43,062 nucleotides of DNA from a virus. Lineage: Duplodnaviria > Heunggongvirae > Uroviricota > Caudoviricetes. Below are positions 24,536-31,142 of this stretch, in pieces. The notes under the pieces are model-generated. The model was given only the letters and a program-made list of their open reading frames with translations. It was not told the DNA's origin and searched no databases. Position numbers and translations under genes: made by a program. The stretch is from IMG/VR virus record IMGVR_UViG_2663763326_000007. One strand, written 5' to 3'. Each line of letters starts with the position of its first letter. The stretch's first letter is position 1.

Positions 24536-24897
24536 TATTAAGGGCGGTCTTCTTCACGTACACAGTCACCTGGTCGAATCGTTCACGCATACTGAGTACA
24601 AAAAATCTCAACGATAAGATCAGGTTAGACCTGTATTTTCCAGAAACATATAGACGCCTAAAAAAACACTAAACTCATGATTATCATGTATGTTTTTACT
24701 GGAAACATTGAACCATCCACAATACAGCGTAAAAAGCAAGCAATTCACAAGATTTTAAAGTGATTTATCTGGAAGACTTTACTACTAACAGTTAATATCG
24801 TACCAGAAGTGCAGAATTTGCACTTTTACAGGAATGTGGTACGGAACATGCTGTCTATATTTCAACCAATAATCGTAATGCAGTAACTGGAGGAGCT

Positions 24898-25386
24898 ATG
24901 GCTACCAACCCAAGAGAGCACGCCCGGCGAGTGCTGGACACGTTCTGGTGCGGGCGTGGTTTCCCTGTTGATCCAGCGAAAATTGCTCACGACATGGGAT
25001 TAGATGTTTTTATTACCGATCTTCCTGGGAAAGTTTCTGGCGCACTGATTAAACAAAAAGATCAAGATCCAGCGATCTTTCTAAACAGTGATGACAACAA
25101 AGTTCGTCAACGTTTTTCATGTGGGCATGAGTTGGGGCATTACATCGCCCGGCAAGCATCGCATAGCGATGAATATGAGTACGTTGATTTACGTGGCGAA
25201 ACCGCAAGCGCCGGAACGCATCCTGATGAAATTTTTGCAAACAAGTTCGCAGCAGAACTTCTGATGCCGGTAGATGAGGTCAGAAAACTGCACGCTGACG
25301 GTCAACCAAGTTATATAATGGCGCATTATTTTGGCGTATCTGACGATGCGATGACTTATCGTTTAAAGAACTTGAGGTTGGGGTAA
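24898..25386 (+). CDS. ImmA/IrrE-family zinc metallopeptidase (M78-like), stand-alone peptidase domain
   Basis: HEXXH motif in ..FSCGHELGHYI.. and a downstream Glu in ..NKFAAELLMP..; GGAGGAG ribosome-binding sequence. Confidence 0.7.
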   Translation: MATNPREHARRVLDTFWCGRGFPVDPAKIAHDMGLDVFITDLPGKVSGALIKQKDQDPAIFLNSDDNKVRQRFSCGHELGHYIARQASHSDEYEYVDLRGETASAGTHPDEIFANKFAAELLMPVDEVRKLHADGQPSYIMAHYFGVSDDAMTYRLKNLRLG

Positions 25387-25395
25387 CGCTTTAAA

Positions 25396-26001
25396 ATGCC
25401 ATCGGATGACGATTTTAACAGCCGTTTCAAACAGGAAGTAGCACGCAGACTGAAGGATTCCCTCAACCTACACCGTCAGTTAGCAGAAGAGGTTGAGCCG
25501 GAGGACGATGAAACTCCGGTTCAGTCTCCTGACGAAGCTTCACCTCAGCCAAAGGTTTCGCACGCCCCCAAAAAAACGGCTGTCCGTATTCGCGGAATAG
25601 CCAGAAAAAGAGCTGCCGAAGCTCGCAAAATGGCTGTAGCTGCGTCTAGCAAAAGAATTCCAACTGCTACACCCTCTCAACAAGTCACCCGTACTGAGAG
25701 TAAAATCTTGACCGAGTTCACATCTGTGAAACAGGTGAATTCACTTGATACCGAGCATGAGCGCAAACAACTCAACAACAAAGATTTTGAAGCAGAAATC
25801 GCTCTAAAAAAACGATACGGGAAATGGTTCCTGATTATCCTTGCTTTCCAACTTCTGATAATGAATGGTGTATTTATTGCCGACGGCGCAGGTAAGCTGG
25901 AATTTGAGGATTTAACACTACAGTTGTACATGGGCGGTACTTTGACAGAGGTATTCGGCCTCGTGCTGGTCGTGACAAAATACCTTTTTAAACGCAAGTA
26001 A
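25396..26001 (+). CDS. Membrane protein with charged, low-complexity N-terminal region and two C-terminal transmembrane helices
   Basis: Starts 10 bp after the peptidase stop; hydrophobic segments ..WFLIILAFQLLIMNGVFIA.. and ..GGTLTEVFGLVLVVTKYLF.. Confidence 0.55.
   Translation: MPSDDDFNSRFKQEVARRLKDSLNLHRQLAEEVEPEDDETPVQSPDEASPQPKVSHAPKKTAVRIRGIARKRAAEARKMAVAASSKRIPTATPSQQVTRTESKILTEFTSVKQVNSLDTEHERKQLNNKDFEAEIALKKRYGKWFLIILAFQLLIMNGVFIADGAGKLEFEDLTLQLYMGGTLTEVFGLVLVVTKYLFKRK
25930..26001 (+). repeat. 72-bp direct repeat, copy 1 (3' end of the membrane-protein gene)
   Basis: ATGGGCGGTACTTTGACAGAGGTATTCGG..CGCAAGTAA recurs at 29352..29423 with about 6 mismatches. Confidence 0.85.
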
Positions 26002-26463
26002 CTCTCTCGGTCCAACAGTCTTTCGAAGGCCCTGATCAAAGGGCCTTGATAAATTAGCAGTGCGTTGAAAACAGATAGTTATTCCCATCAGTTCCAACGT
26101 AATACACATCAAAAAAATCACCATTCTTTTGCTCTAACGTCAACACCTACCCTTAAAAAAATAATTCTCCAAGAATGAGAAAGTTATTGTGTGTATTAGA
26201 TAAGATATGAGCTGACACATCTATGGCGTGGAGCCAAATTTAATATGACAGTCCGCTCTGTGCCATAAGCGGACTGTCAATAAACAGATTCACTTGTAAA
26301 TCTTGAAGCTATACATATTTACTTTCAATGATAAATAAAAGAACTATCCAAAAATCACTGAGAGCATATTTTAACTAACCCTCCGCTACTATTAACATAA
26401 ATTTCACCCAACCATAATTAAATTGATACATATAGCAACTTACCTTGATACGAATCATCTGGG

Positions 26464-27162
26464 TTATATTTTTCCATATTTTTTTCCGTCAAATCGAATC
26501 ATGCCAGGATCAAGAAAATTAATTAAATCGATTAACGCGTGCTGTATTCTGATTAGCCTTTCTTTATAAATTCCGATATCTCTTGTCATATTTATCACTT
26601 CATTGTTTAAATCTAAAAAAAATGGCTCATTGATAAAGCAATTTTCCTTTGTGAAACTGCCGTAACCTATGCAATCAAATCCAGTATCTGTTGATATCAG
26701 CATCTTTTCTGCAATAGCTCTCTGCTCTCCTATGAAAAACATAAAATACTGACCAAAGACGTCTGTTTGGATTAATGAGTTAATATTGTTCTGTAATCTA
26801 ATAAACTCCCTCATTTTTTTATTTTTTTCTAGGCTAAGGTATTGAATGTCTATGCGGGCAGCTTCTGTCCATGCAAAAAACTGGGAAAAAAGAAAAACAG
26901 TATTGTTGATAACATAATCTTGTTGGCGCTTATTCCCATTATGATAAAACTCTTCAATGAACCCCAATTCTAATATATTATAAATACGGCTTTGTAAGTC
27001 TGAAGCTGAGCGAATTAACGGTTCAATATAGTACTGATGTTTTCTCCTTACATCCAGTGATTCATTGAGCTTGTTTATTCTATTCTGATTATAAGTAGAT
27101 ATAGCAATAGAGATTATAGCTATTGCACCACTAATAAAGCTTGAAATTAATGCCGTACCCAT
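26464..27162 (-). CDS. Low-GC protein with N-terminal transmembrane helix (232 aa), function unknown
   Basis: ATG at 27160..27162 with AAGGA 7 nt upstream; N-terminal ..LISSFISGAIAIISIAISTY..; Asn/Ile/Lys-rich, far more AT-rich than the flanking phage genes. Confidence 0.5.
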   Translation of the reverse strand: MGTALISSFISGAIAIISIAISTYNQNRINKLNESLDVRRKHQYYIEPLIRSASDLQSRIYNILELGFIEEFYHNGNKRQQDYVINNTVFLFSQFFAWTEAARIDIQYLSLEKNKKMREFIRLQNNINSLIQTDVFGQYFMFFIGEQRAIAEKMLISTDTGFDCIGYGSFTKENCFINEPFFLDLNNEVINMTRDIGIYKERLIRIQHALIDLINFLDPGMIRFDGKKYGKI

Positions 27163-28349
27163 CTAAAAGTCCTTTGATTCTTGCTTGGTTAACAAAATGA
27201 CATAATTTTATTTAATGCCATAACAACTTAACAATATATCATAATATGATTATTATGGTGTAGCTTGTCGCATCTACGCTCCATTACAAACAGATGTAAG
27301 ATATAACCTATATGTTTTAGCCAGCAAATTCGAAAGCATTCAAAGTAGTCTCATCGAACTCTCGAAACCCTATGTCTTCGGGTATAAAATATTTAAATCC
27401 ATTTGCATAATATCGACTCATGTTTATTATATTCTCCCCATTCACCATTAAGATTTGACATTATTTTCAACAATCGGTTATTGCAAGATTGAAATATATT
27501 TTTACTTGACACAATATTCCATGTAGCCCAGCGATTCGACTTACCCCCAACTATACGGACAATCTAAATTAAATCGATGATTTTTTGATACATTCTCCTC
27601 TCTCCATTACTTTATGTTTTTGTTCCCCAAAAATACCTTGCTCTCTAAAAAATAATTGTTCTTTAAGTTCAAAATCGAGATCTACATGAGCGTTAGATAC
27701 AAAGCTAATATGTTGAAATGTCTTTCCCCCCCCATAACGGCATTGTTATCTAAACTATGTTACACAAATATAATATTACCCTTTCAACGTAATCCAAGAA
27801 TAAGATTAATGCCATTATATATATCATAAATATGATATTTTGTATATTTTTATCATTTAGCCTTGATTGTACTAGGTGTACTCTCAACGAAGTAGGGAAA
27901 GTCTGTTCCTCGCTCACAGCTGCCCTTCAGTAAGCGAAAAAATGCCTACTCGGTGCCATATACAGCCATTGTTATTAACAGCAGGGAATAATTCAAAACT
28001 GAAATTAAATATCTACCTTTTACAGTAGAAATAGTTCCTCCAGGACACTATCCATTGCCGGGCACAATCACTCGGGGTATAACGATATAAAATATGTTCA
28101 TGATAGTGCAGGTTCGTATATTAAGTTCAGCAGCGAAAACATGCCTTACAGGTTTCCGGTTTTGGGAGCGTCGTTACAGGATCCTGCGCATACCGTTCCC
28201 ATCTGTTGAATTAAAGGTTTCACAGCCTTTGCCGATATCACCTTTTACCTTACCTGTGATGCGTTCAGTGCTCAGCGTTGTTTACTGTAGCTCTCGGGAC
28301 TGATTACAGACCGCGTCTTAAAAACCAATCCTTACTCTAAAGGGAATTC

Positions 28350-29273
28350 ATGAGATTAAAATACTCAGTACTCTTACTCGCCATTGCCCTTACAGGCTGT
28401 GATAACAAAAAAGATGAGATCGGTTGTTCTTCGGAAATAACCCAGTCAGCTCTCATGGATTTATTAAAAAAATCTGCTTATGAAGGACTCTCTGAACAGG
28501 TCGATAAATACCCTGATGTCACTAATCAGACCAAACGAAGCACACTGGACAAGATCAAACTAGCCATCTCTGAGATCTCCACAACATCAAGTGACACGGG
28601 CAGCACAATGAAAACTTGTGAAGGGACCGTGACGATGACTCTATCTGCGAACGAGTACGTCCAGCTTTCAGATGCTTACAGAAAGAATTTTAATCGTAAT
28701 CTCGATAAGCAAATGGAAAGCCTGTTTTTGGAGAACAACGCAAACGCCTTTTCAAAACGTATCACCTACACCGTGCAGGCGACCGACGATCAGAAAAACG
28801 TTTTTGTAAAAACCTCTACTGATAATCCGATATCAGTGGGCGCCGCTTTACTGACATCGCTTTCCATTATCACCCCGATCGTTGAGCAGCAGAAAATCCA
28901 GCAGGCTAAGGATGCCCAACAGAGTCAAATTGAAGCGGAACAACAGGTGCAACTCAGGGCGCAAGAACAGGCTAAGTATGAGGCGGAGAAGCAAATAGAG
29001 AGACAGGCACAACTTCAGCCGCAAAAAGCTGACAACCTTGATCAGTCCCGAATGGCATTTGCGAATGCCGACTCTGATTTGAGTACCGTCTGGAGCAAGT
29101 TAACCCCGGCGAAGAAAAAAGATTTGCTGCCTTCTCAGCGTCAGTGGATCAAAACTAAGGATGCTATGTGCGGTAAAGTTTCAATGCAGGGAACAGATGC
29201 TGAAGTCAAGAAAATGGTCGACTGCCAGACGCAAATGACCCTTTCAAGAATCGCTTTCCTCAGAAACCAATAA
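28350..29273 (+). CDS. Lipoprotein with C-terminal DUF1311 (LprI-like) domain
   Basis: Signal peptide with LTGC lipobox; Gln-rich coiled linker; C-terminus ..LSTVWSKL..QRQWIKTKDAMCG..MVDCQTQMTLSRIAFL.. fits the remembered DUF1311 Cys/Trp pattern. Confidence 0.55.
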   Translation: MRLKYSVLLLAIALTGCDNKKDEIGCSSEITQSALMDLLKKSAYEGLSEQVDKYPDVTNQTKRSTLDKIKLAISEISTTSSDTGSTMKTCEGTVTMTLSANEYVQLSDAYRKNFNRNLDKQMESLFLENNANAFSKRITYTVQATDDQKNVFVKTSTDNPISVGAALLTSLSIITPIVEQQKIQQAKDAQQSQIEAEQQVQLRAQEQAKYEAEKQIERQAQLQPQKADNLDQSRMAFANADSDLSTVWSKLTPAKKKDLLPSQRQWIKTKDAMCGKVSMQGTDAEVKKMVDCQTQMTLSRIAFLRNQ

Positions 29274-29351
29274 CTGAAGTCTCCTTCAAGCTGGCGCCAG
29301 GTGTTAACCTGGTGCCAGCTTAGTCATCAAGTGCATATGTAACTGTTTTAT

Positions 29352-29423
29352 ATGGGCGGTACTTTGACAGAGGTATTCGGTCTCGTGCTGGTCGTGGTCA
29401 AATACCTTTTTAAGCGCAAATAG
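29352..29423 (+). repeat. 72-bp direct repeat, copy 2 (orphan gene-end remnant)
   Basis: Encodes MGGTLTEVFGLVLVVVKYLFKRK then a stop, with no upstream gene body; right boundary of the 3.35 kb insert. Confidence 0.85.
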
Positions 29424-29447
29424 AGTATTTCCGCCCCAAACAACCTG

Positions 29448-30266
29448 TCAAAATGCTGAATTAGCAACGGATATAGCCGACTTTTTCCCCATTACCATCA
29501 ATTTATCCAGTGTCATACTTCGCAGATTGTCGCTGTGGATCACCAGATACCCTGCCCGCTCAGCGATCTCTTTGAAAGCGTCAAAGGTCATCAGATGTTC
29601 GCCTTTGGCAACATGGCGCATCCCGGTCACTTTTCCATTTTTGATAGTGGTGATAAAAGAAAAATCTGGAATGGTTGGGTGATTTTCATCGAGTAGCAGG
29701 CAGTGGATGTATTCAATCGCCTCTAACATTTGCGTCTGTGACAGTTGTTCTATGTGAGAGACGGCGAAGCGTTGATGAATCATGGTGTAGGCATCGGGAT
29801 ACATCATGCCTTTCTTGCCGACCAGTATATTAACGGCATCACGCAAGGGAGTACGGTCATCGGTAGTTGTACTCCGCCTCTCTGGACGCTGGCTAAAATA
29901 ACAATCTTCCAGCTTTTCGAAAACTTCCCAGGCCTGTTCTGTTTCCAGCATTTTGGCATGGCGAGCTGCGCCGCGTTCTGTCCAGAGAATGAGGGATCGG
30001 GTATGTTTAGCAACTGACTGACTATCTGTCAGTCTGTTTTTGAAGTCGCGTAATTCATTACCTTCCAGCTTAAAAAAATGCTTTCCTACGACAAATCTGG
30101 CGATGTTGCGCTTGAAGTTTTGCTGGATACCATTTACTTCCGTGCCATACAAACTGGCAAGCAATTCAGTAGTGATGACGGGAAGTTGGTTATGATGTAG
30201 CGGAGAAAGGGATTCCGCAGATATTTGGACTGTCATCGCAGTGGCCTCACTTAGTGTTTTTTTCAT
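29448..30266 (-). CDS. Phage antirepressor / regulatory protein (Ant, ORF6N/Rha-like N-terminal domain)
   Basis: N-terminal ..PVITTELLASLYGTEVNGIQQNFKRNIARFVVGKHFFKLEGNELRDFKN.. resembles the antirepressor N-domain; start set at ATG 30264..30266. Confidence 0.55.
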   Translation of the reverse strand: MKKTLSEATAMTVQISAESLSPLHHNQLPVITTELLASLYGTEVNGIQQNFKRNIARFVVGKHFFKLEGNELRDFKNRLTDSQSVAKHTRSLILWTERGAARHAKMLETEQAWEVFEKLEDCYFSQRPERRSTTTDDRTPLRDAVNILVGKKGMMYPDAYTMIHQRFAVSHIEQLSQTQMLEAIEYIHCLLLDENHPTIPDFSFITTIKNGKVTGMRHVAKGEHLMTFDAFKEIAERAGYLVIHSDNLRSMTLDKLMVMGKKSAISVANSAF

Positions 30267-30508
30267 CACCACCAGCGACGCCAATCATCTGGTGGTGAGC
30301 TGTGCAGGGTTGGCGTAACCGGCTAAGTGAACCCGGCGCTTCCACAGAAGCCCCCACACAGCCCACCATAATGCGAATGTGGCCGTGCCTAACACATAAA
30401 AAAACCGCTAACGCGGCTATGCGTCACTTAGATATCCGGGACGCCAATCCCGGCAACCGATTTTGCGGCTGCGCGGAAACTATAGCCCCGGACTTTTTCT
30501 AAGTCAAT

Positions 30509-30730
30509 TCAATCAACTTCAAACCTCCGGTGTTCACATTCCATACACTCAACGGGAACATCATCGCGATGCAAGTCCACATATCCGACCCGCTTATACA
30601 ACTCAATAATGTCCGGTAACGTGACCAGATGTTTTTCCGGTTCCAACACCTCAGCCCGGGTTACTTTGTAATCTGAAATATAGAGCACTATCCGCCCGTT
30701 CCGTGGTAACTCCAGTTTATCGCCAAACAT
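30509..30730 (-). CDS. Hypothetical protein (73 aa)
   Basis: ORF in the leftward early operon; contains a CxxCEH motif. Confidence 0.35.
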   Translation of the reverse strand: MFGDKLELPRNGRIVLYISDYKVTRAEVLEPEKHLVTLPDIIELYKRVGYVDLHRDDVPVECMECEHRRFEVD

Positions 30731-30917
30731 GTCCTTTCCCTCCGGGAAACCAATGATATTGACGATATTACACCCACAACGATTCGTTTTACGTCACTCC
30801 GCAATCACCATACATCCGTACCAATCCGTACATTCCCACCACAAAAACGATATTTGACAGGCACTGGTAATAGATTTTTAACGCGTGCTATTGCCTTGCG
30901 ACGTATTTTCAATTCAC

Positions 30918-31142
30918 TCATACAGCCTCCCTGCTCTCAAACGGACGAATATTGGTTGGTTCTCCACACGGAATAGCCCAACCCAGCCAGGTAAATATTT
31001 TCAGGTCACACATCGCGTCATACCGTTCGCCAGGATTCACATCCACCATGCTGCAGGCAATTTCATATTGTTCACCATTATCAGTCAGTGCGATCTGGTC
31101 ATTAATAAACCGGGGCACAAATGCAAGAAAAAGTTCTTTCAT
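30918..31142 (-). CDS. Hypothetical protein (74 aa)
   Basis: ORF in the leftward early operon, 4-bp overlap with the upstream gene. Confidence 0.35.
   Translation of the reverse strand: MKELFLAFVPRFINDQIALTDNGEQYEIACSMVDVNPGERYDAMCDLKIFTWLGWAIPCGEPTNIRPFESREAV

Follow-up and report, generated by a model that had tools for sequence, protein, structure and literature searches.

The element considered here is a stretch of about 3.4 kb in a temperate phage of Escherichia coli, which is represented by the IMG/VR record IMGVR_UViG_2663763326_000007 (43,062 nucleotides (nt); this whole stretch of DNA is referred to as the window). It lies between the gene of a membrane protein, here called geneX, and the leftward gene of an antirepressor, and it is bracketed by two copies of the last 81 nt of geneX. 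We consider it probable that this DNA is accessory cargo in a hypervariable slot, that the cargo is built in two layers, and that it moves by homologous recombination at short conserved edge blocks. The anatomy of the slot, its variants, its hybrid joints and the defence-gene content of the sister cassettes are directly visible in related genomes. The locus is an accessory and defence hotspot of a prophage, that is, a known phenomenon which is ordinary in kind and here well resolved.

The direct repeat relates positions 25920-26000 to positions 29342-29422, with 72 of the 81 nt identical (11% divergence) and a longest exact block of 29 nt. Such a pair would be expected by chance in the window at a level of about 1e-24; the repeat is real and not a product of chance. 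The original prediction, which was made from the window alone, had placed the repeats at 25930..26001 and 29352..29423 with about 6 mismatches in 72 nt. These coordinates are right, with the repeat reaching about 10 nt further to the left, and the near-identity holds, but that part of the open reading frame (ORF) contains 7 mismatches. Both copies are open frames; of five changed codons, four are silent and one replaces Thr by Val. The right copy is indeed an orphan tail as predicted, consisting of 23 codons and a stop codon (29352-29423) with the translation MGGTLTEVFGLVLVVVKYLFKRK, and it is a non-functional relic of the geneX tail. In RM9387, L017 and Escherichia whittamii it is frameshifted by a deletion of 1 nt. 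The left copy is the functional 3' end of the gene. Its last 80 of 81 nt do not vary among the intact geneX alleles examined, those of L012 and L018 included; in these two, the sole tail difference is the first base, 25920. The left edge of this conservation is sharp: compared with the window, E. whittamii and L018 have 16 mismatches in the 45 nt before the tail and none from 25921 to the stop codon. The tail is confined to this prophage family and occurs in at most two copies per genome.

E. coli GPEC172 carries the same prophage (99.94-99.97% identical over 37 kb) without exactly the DNA between the repeats. A relative in which the membrane-protein gene directly abuts the antirepressor gene had been named as the arrangement to look for, and this is found in GPEC172. 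Its single tail is a hybrid with the bases of the left copy at three 5' diagnostic sites and the bases of the right copy at all 3' sites, which places the crossover within the 29-nt identical block (repeat positions 11-39). Nearly all differences near the joint are diagnostic repeat positions, and 3-4 single-nucleotide polymorphisms (SNPs) of the prophage lie outside the tail. A second, independent pair of a filled and an empty slot is formed by HCP5S3_I2 and JNE151685, in a background without geneX, which is itself replaced. In the single-tail member of this pair, JNE151685, the crossover lies at about positions 70-85, and the right copy in E. whittamii is RM9387-like on its left and left-copy-like on its right side, with a crossover at positions 58-73.

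In further relatives the slot is filled with different cargo. In OZ038590, the sequence up to 26278 and that from 27907 onwards are identical to the window, with 4.2 kb of different genes in between, and RM9387 and S42 share 24636-26023 and 27949-31142 with the window and have another cargo set between these segments. Further states of the slot are found in HCP5S3_I2, JNE151685, L26, ECO20, one E. whittamii genome and several IMG/VR contigs. Altogether, no fewer than seven cargo states, besides the empty one, occur with these same flanks, as expected of a hotspot. The prediction that cargo was inserted, or a cassette exchanged, through recombination within the end of a gene is thus supported by the empty site of GPEC172 and the other cargo in the same place, whereas the recency that was also claimed does not hold (see below). 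Nor do all relatives carry the same repeats and the same intervening DNA of uniform composition, given the empty site, the other cargo and a cassette with a G+C content (GC) of 31.3%. Recognised or candidate anti-phage systems, as judged by PADLOC matches, are present in the sister cassettes and not in the cargo of the window itself. The matches in sister cargo comprise HEC-08 (1e-173), PD-T4-3 (6e-138 and 2e-137), PDC-M25A/B (8.5e-157 and 4e-96), an NsnA-like DUF262/GmrSD-N protein (4.6e-41), SMEK-domain proteins and a T5orf172/GIY-YIG-type protein.

The insert of the window has two layers, which differ in composition and in their breakpoints. It had been noted that everything between the repeats is far more AT-rich than its surroundings; this is true for 26279-27906 (31.3% GC) and not for the rest, as 26002-26278 has 40%, 27907-28349 has 43.1% and the gene of the LprI-like lipoprotein has 44.8%, so that the LprI half resembles the left flank (43.9%; right flank 49%, window mean 48%). 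The right-hand breakpoints of five cargo variants cluster within about 40 nt (27900-27940), which separates the insert into two units, the LprI module (27907-29341) and the inner AT-rich cassette (26279-27906). It is this inner cassette that is actually swapped, and it is nested with the older LprI module. Within E. coli it was found only in this context (403 genomes), and the stretch 26251-27823 shows 74% DNA identity to an unrelated island (L030). The predicted content of two genes on opposite strands and a 1.2-kb ORF-free stretch is correct, with genes at 26464-27162 (-) and 28350-29273 (+) and 1187 nt without a credible ORF between them. This stretch has two origins, because 27163-27823 travels with the gene of the 232-residue protein and 27907-28349 is the leader of the LprI module.

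At the left border, the boundary segment 26002-26278 is also found after the right tail copy in E. whittamii. It contains an element of about 85 nt (26190-26278) that ends in a 13-bp hairpin (26246-26279, fold z = -5.2), which in a terminator scan reads as a minus-strand terminator for the leftward 232-residue gene. The breakpoint of the cassette relative to OZ038590 coincides with the end of this element. Copies with 78-92% identity occur in about 300 other E. coli genomes (an estimate), in unannotated intergenic DNA of other prophages and islands; in S88, for example, the element adjoins yfdQRS-type genes and an integrase gene. No Rfam family was found for it. The features of the slot and of its borders are compiled in Table 1.

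Table 1. Features in and around the cargo slot, with positions in the window.
Feature	Position	Strand	Basis and remarks
ImmA/IrrE-type metalloprotease gene	24898..25386	+	Pfam Peptidase_M78 7.7e-18; PADLOC capP 2.4e-25; RefSeq annotation
geneX, membrane protein, 201 residues	25396..26001	+	ORF; phrog_5346; last 81 nt are the left repeat copy
Left repeat copy, functional 3' end of geneX	25920..26000	+	repeat search, family D1
Boundary segment after geneX	26002..26278	.	hairpin at ~26044-26061; >97% shared with variant D and L015/L018
Inner low-GC cassette	26279..27906	.	breakpoints relative to OZ038590 (26278/27907) and RM9387 (26023/27949); differs between otherwise identical prophages
Cargo gene 1, 232 residues	26464..27162	-	ORF; N-terminal membrane helix, all-helical body; NCBI family 'lysogenic protein'
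AT-rich upstream region of cargo gene 1	27163..27823	-	DNA homology to L030; one or two small ORFs survive there in decayed form
Leader of the LprI module	27907..28349	+	accompanies LprI at 93-100% identity in all variants; left edge is the shared right-hand breakpoint of five variants
Cargo gene 2, predicted lipoprotein, 307 residues	28350..29273	+	signal peptide ending in LTGC (lipobox read from translation); C-terminal LprI/DUF1311 domain
Hairpin after the LprI gene, AGCTGGCGCCAGG-TGTTAA-CCTGGTGCCAGCT	29289..29320	+	read from sequence; followed by a constant 21 nt and the orphan tail
Right repeat copy, orphan geneX tail	29342..29422	+	always linked to LprI
ORF6N-domain antirepressor gene	29448..30236	-	Pfam ORF6N 8.9e-22; phrog_4792 anti-repressor; conserved right flank
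C4 antisense RNA gene	30288..30373	-	Rfam RF01695, 75.2 bits (gathering score 45), E 5.9e-14

In the arrangement that we propose, the first layer is an old LprI module (27907-29341, comprising leader, lipoprotein gene and hairpin) that trails the last 81 nt of geneX as an orphan copy, from which the direct repeats result. The 1.6-kb AT-rich cassette (26279-27906) forms the second layer inside, with the stand-alone 232-residue gene, its own upstream region and its terminator. Cargo would be exchanged between related phages or prophages via homologous recombination, with the geneX tail, the terminator-bearing segment after it and the LprI leader as homology arms. The tail would be suited to this purpose through what it encodes, a C-terminal membrane helix that hardly varies. 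If the two tail copies in one genome recombine with each other, everything between them would be deleted, as in GPEC172. Both cargo genes would be expressed from the prophage and would benefit the lysogen. That the exchange is homologous recombination and not the action of an attachment (att)-type site is indicated by the following observations: the crossover positions vary, no recombinase or transposase ORF and no terminal inverted repeats are found between the repeats (26002-29341), the tail is restricted to one prophage family, and the repeated block of some variants continues beyond the stop codon for 180-280 nt and enters the terminator-bearing segment.

The near-identity of the repeats had been taken to suggest a recent event, which can not be upheld, as the copies are 11% diverged and the combination of LprI and orphan tail is common to diverged prophages and E. 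whittamii. The combination occurs with the same left junction in prophages with an antirepressor gene that is only 86.5% identical, as well as in E. whittamii, and this indicates that the duplication predates their divergence and is old. Every right-hand copy shows the same succession of hairpin, 21 nt and tail, indicating that the linkage to LprI arose only once. The empty site of GPEC172, on the other hand, is young, because the flanks of the empty and the filled versions are identical, which implies a young event in either direction. It most likely represents a secondary deletion by recombination between the repeats within the ST131 lineage: the empty site is found in only one of the 446 complete genomes that carry the junction sequences, the 5-kb chromosomal flank of GPEC172 is 100% identical to that of strain EC958, and the prophage has few SNPs. 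The hybrid geneX protein allele (...LVLVVVKYLFKRK) was detected on 23 contigs, compared with at least 1,000 for the normal allele. Its Val residue occurs in no other intact geneX family member examined, and the Val of the orphan tail is otherwise seen only in this hybrid allele.

The gene within the inner cassette encodes a protein of 232 residues, for which 290 homologues were detected across Proteobacteria. In the six neighbourhoods examined the homologues stand alone, and these neighbourhoods comprise the variable region of a P2-type Providencia prophage, a position beside SIR2-HerA in a Xanthomonadaceae genome, a position beside an ORC/CDC6-like ATPase in Serratia, an AlpA-type island and a site between housekeeping genes. 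An AlphaFold2 model (pLDDT 87) consists of the N-terminal membrane helix and a long helical bundle. Judged by location and family, the protein would probably mediate prophage-expressed phage exclusion or abortive defence at the membrane. Measured against what is expected of a moron, the gene has a deviating composition (31.3% versus 48% GC) and a terminator hairpin, and its promoter match is at chance level. In the upstream region, tblastn with the 63- and 61-residue ORFs of L030 gave matches to broken frames within 27163-27823, and when an undecayed version of the upstream ORF was sought, only proteins of 50-74 residues were returned. A small ORF at 27560-27740 (-) is intact in relatives (63-74 residues, upstream of the 232-residue gene); in the window its start codon is lost and three-frame translation reveals frame changes, and in L030 the region is split into two ORFs. 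An Rfam scan of 25300-30400 at E<=1 found nothing in the ORF-free stretch and only the C4 RNA outside it. A literature search on 'RTasTM', a PADLOC model, and on 'lysogenic protein' gave nothing relevant.

As alternative to homologous exchange, the repeats could be read as attL and attR of a small integrative element that a site-specific recombinase placed into the 3' end of geneX, together with a replacement gene end. It is true that the repeats include the 3' end of the target gene, that the frame is restored, that towards the antirepressor gene the homology does not go beyond the stop codon, and that the empty site consists of the left part of the left copy and the right part of the right copy, as an attB site would; moreover, the sister cargo of OZ038590 includes an ORF with a Phage_integrase domain. 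That ORF, however, has just 200 residues, the window has no recombinase gene between the repeats, and the prophage's own integrase is 13 kb away and serves a tRNA-Leu site. The crossovers fall into three different intervals of the tail, the longer repeated blocks of other variants reach some 180-280 nt beyond it, the tail does not exceed two copies per genome in this one prophage family, and the inner cassette was exchanged at other breakpoints. We therefore reject an att-flanked site-specific element, for which a dedicated recombinase ORF in 26002-29341 and a single fixed core position are missing, and regard the integrative reading as quite improbable. An insertion sequence or transposon was likewise rejected, as there are no transposase and no inverted repeats at the ends and as an imperfect duplication of 81 nt is far too long, and so was an integron-like cassette array, given the low copy number of the tail and the lack of an integron integrase. 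A different objection concerns the direction of the GPEC172 event, as the empty site could be ancestral and the whole 3.4-kb unit a recent gain of the ST131 prophage. The identical flanks are compatible with this, and a hybrid tail is equally expected for an unoccupied site. The rarity of the empty state, the chromosomal flank shared with EC958, the presence of LprI and tail in diverged prophages and another species, and the absence of the Val-containing tail from all other intact family members examined speak against it, and we think that an ancestral empty site is unlikely.

Two further alternatives concern the parts of the insert. The right copy of the tail might have been kept because it is functional, be it as a 23-residue membrane peptide, as a structure at the 3' end of the transcripts of LprI or the antirepressor, or as source of an antisense RNA against geneX. 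In the window its frame is intact and has an ATG start, five of the seven mismatches between the two copies affect the third position of a codon (p ~0.045 under neutrality), and a promoter-like site at 29451-29424 (-) points into it. Yet a Shine-Dalgarno sequence can not be seen in front of it, the promoter scan yields about as many sites as chance would, the copy is frameshifted in the three relatives named above, and in L018 it was lost without replacement, so that a retained function appears very unlikely. The low-GC cassette, in turn, might be the remnant of a reverse-transcriptase defence (DRT), with the 232-residue protein as membrane partner and the ORF-free stretch as a dead reverse transcriptase (RT) gene or a non-coding RNA. 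This would build on the match of the PADLOC model RTasTM (DRT) to the protein (1.8e-5) and on the adjacent 1.2 kb without ORF. But no RT-like reading frame exists in any frame of 27163-28349, the decayed ORFs correspond to proteins of 50-74 residues and not to an RT, none of the six homologue neighbourhoods includes an RT, and the ORF-free stretch has no Rfam match. As there is no RT here or near the homologues examined, the weak RTasTM match is not sufficient for an assignment to DRT; membership was rejected, and a DRT origin is hardly to be expected.

Some observations weigh against the two-layer slot with homologous exchange and lysogen-serving cargo that we prefer. The sharp left edge of the tail, which is shared in several contexts, could fit a defined recombination site, and the crossover intervals are few (n=3). 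Fold and sequence searches with the 232-residue protein revealed no informative relative, and the RTasTM match is the only, weak one obtained with PADLOC. A promoter-like site at 27234-27205 in the upstream region comes from a scan at chance level (13 sites found, 12.7 expected). Finally, loss in GPEC172, as opposed to the cargo never having been gained, is deduced from near-identity and rarity and not from a phylogeny. Somewhat bolder, and held only tentatively, is the idea that either the 232-residue 'lysogenic protein' family, whose genes often lie beside defence systems, is an undescribed single-gene anti-phage or superinfection-exclusion system, or the tail together with the terminator segment is a dedicated docking module. 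The docking module is suggested by the nucleotide-sharp left edge of the geneX tail and its repeated use as a joint; of the two, the single-gene system is more likely.

The second cargo gene codes for a predicted lipoprotein of the LprI/DUF1311 family. Its residues 225-304 match Pfam PF07007 (4.1e-7, 30.8 bits at a cut-off of 22), and it is further labelled phrog_5094 and, in RefSeq, 'lysozyme inhibitor LprI family protein'. From its position and family it would protect the envelope by lysozyme inhibition or exclude phages. A 69-residue ORF in the leader of the module has no Pfam match, and a collection of phage isolates contained no match to the LprI module. A type I-E CRISPR spacer found in about 140 genomes (an estimate; DA33137, for example) matches the first 32 nt of the LprI gene (28350-28381, 32/32), and this target is preceded by ATG.

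To the left of the slot, geneX forms a two-gene unit with an ImmA/IrrE-type metalloprotease gene. The membrane protein is variable in its N-terminal part and conserved in its two-helix membrane domain at the C-terminus, and its 299 representative homologues mostly align only over residues ~110-201. The C-terminal sequence ...LTLQLYMGGTLTEVFGLVLVVTKYLFKRK (the last ~29 residues) is essentially invariant in six homologues read, which are ~50-67% identical overall, and has few substitutions in more distant homologues. The ImmA/IrrE gene matches the model of the CBASS-associated CapP, the gap to geneX is 9 nt, and the N-terminal two-thirds of geneX are hypervariable between homologues. The ImmA-geneX pair could itself be a membrane effector module that is triggered by damage or phage. 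In L010 (ECO20), L019/L009 (HCP5S3_I2) and L020 (JNE151685), this operon is replaced by two leftward genes (226 and 182 residues), and an 83-nt relic of the geneX tail persists there without the gene; thus, the variable region reaches further to the left than the insert. Two CRISPR matches were seen in this unit. A type I-E spacer of another E. coli (strain 23CRST031) matches the left tail copy at 25955-25986 (32/32), the protospacer being on the minus strand and preceded by AAG, and a 35-nt perfect CRISPR-annotated match concerns the ImmA gene (25104-25138).

The prophage as a whole is widespread. The 7.5 kb around the insert match, with 100% identity, a prophage in the chromosome of E. coli O25b:H4-ST131 (EC958, JJ1886 and many more), at least 80% of these 7.5 kb are found in 402 of the 5,426 complete E. 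coli genomes, and the cargo is 100% conserved across the 402-403 complete genomes with the prophage. In EC958 the prophage lies beside tRNA-Leu/Cys/Gly and pgsA, and its genes comprise a lambda-like head, a contractile tail with baseplate, a Q antiterminator, a replication module and a tyrosine integrase. The papers on EC958 describe other prophages (Phi4 at 1.44-1.49 Mb) and not this locus. This temperate phage of E. coli combines a lambda-like head and a contractile tail with a C4/antirepressor control that is P1-like. The slot is bordered by the ImmA-geneX unit on the left and the leftward ORF6N antirepressor gene on the right, and the C4 antisense RNA is located directly upstream of the antirepressor gene, as in the immI control of P1. 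Here, this P1/P7 immI-like module of C4 RNA and ORF6N occurs together with lambda-like heads and a region of the cI/cro type. At the stop codon of the antirepressor gene there is a candidate promoter (29451-29424 (-), TTGACA-16-AATACT, 10/12) that reads leftward into the orphan tail, in a scan that is overall at chance level; in the arrangement of the empty site it would yield an RNA antisense to the 3' end of geneX. An IS3-family element of 1.44 kb (40447-41885), with a 173-residue helix-turn-helix ORF and a 283-residue rve-domain ORF, lies immediately upstream of the gene of the prophage integrase. It is absent from GPEC172 and apparently also from EC958, where according to the annotation a DUF4224 gene runs directly into the integrase gene, so that the window does not derive from EC958 itself.

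Among known systems, the morons of lambdoid phages as conceived by Hendrix and colleagues are said to be autonomous units of promoter, gene and terminator with deviant base composition between core genes. The 232-residue gene resembles them in its own upstream region, its terminator hairpin, its 31% versus 48% GC and its orientation opposite to the neighbours. In contrast to classical morons, which are single insertions, it sits in a multi-layer slot with a duplicated gene end, and its expression in the lysogen is a matter of deduction. Mobile regulatory cassettes (PeSL) reportedly flank shuffled genes in T4-type phages, a finding credited to Arbiol et al. 2010. The likeness is in the short repeats at the cassette borders that serve as homology for modular shuffling; PeSL is a promoter-stem-loop with many copies in virulent phages, while here a coding gene end occurs in at most two copies per genome of a temperate phage. 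For the defence hotspots of P2-like phages and P4-like satellites, an exchange via homologous recombination at the conserved flanks was speculated and the mechanism left open (Rousset et al. 2022, PMC9122126). As in these hotspots, a fixed slot between conserved phage genes accommodates many unrelated, often AT-rich cargo sets that are enriched in anti-phage systems. The differences are the phage family, the position between an operon of ImmA and membrane protein and a C4-controlled antirepressor, the direct legibility of the joints (hybrid tails, orphan gene end and two occupied/empty pairs), and the lack of a recognised defence system in the window's own cargo. The report on SGI1 (10.1101/2021.06.18.448947) describes an integrase-driven island that is inserted at the 3' end of trmE and restores the gene. 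As in SGI1 so described, the insert is flanked by direct repeats that contain the 3' end of the gene, and the target gene remains intact; unlike it, the present insert is without integrase, the crossover positions vary, and the inner cassette is swapped at other breakpoints. BstA (PMC8585504) and P22 SieA (PMC10883804), the latter acting at the membrane, are single-gene defence proteins encoded by prophages. They provide a model for what the 232-residue gene may do, namely to block other phages with one prophage-expressed protein, a role suggested by its location; no relationship in sequence or fold was found. The locus reveals no new kind of mechanism.

Its value is that of an unusually legible record of the entry and exit of cargo: repeat copies of hybrid make-up, a gene end left as an orphan, two independent pairs of filled and empty slots, and seven or more sets of cargo. 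This record sits in a prophage that is fixed in the pandemic ST131 clone. The slot could be mined for new defence genes. The two uncharacterised genes that are present in nearly all ST131 strains are candidate genes for resistance to phages or protection of the envelope, and this matters for phage therapy directed at ST131; if the 232-residue protein does represent a single-gene anti-phage system, such a system would be carried by essentially every ST131 isolate.

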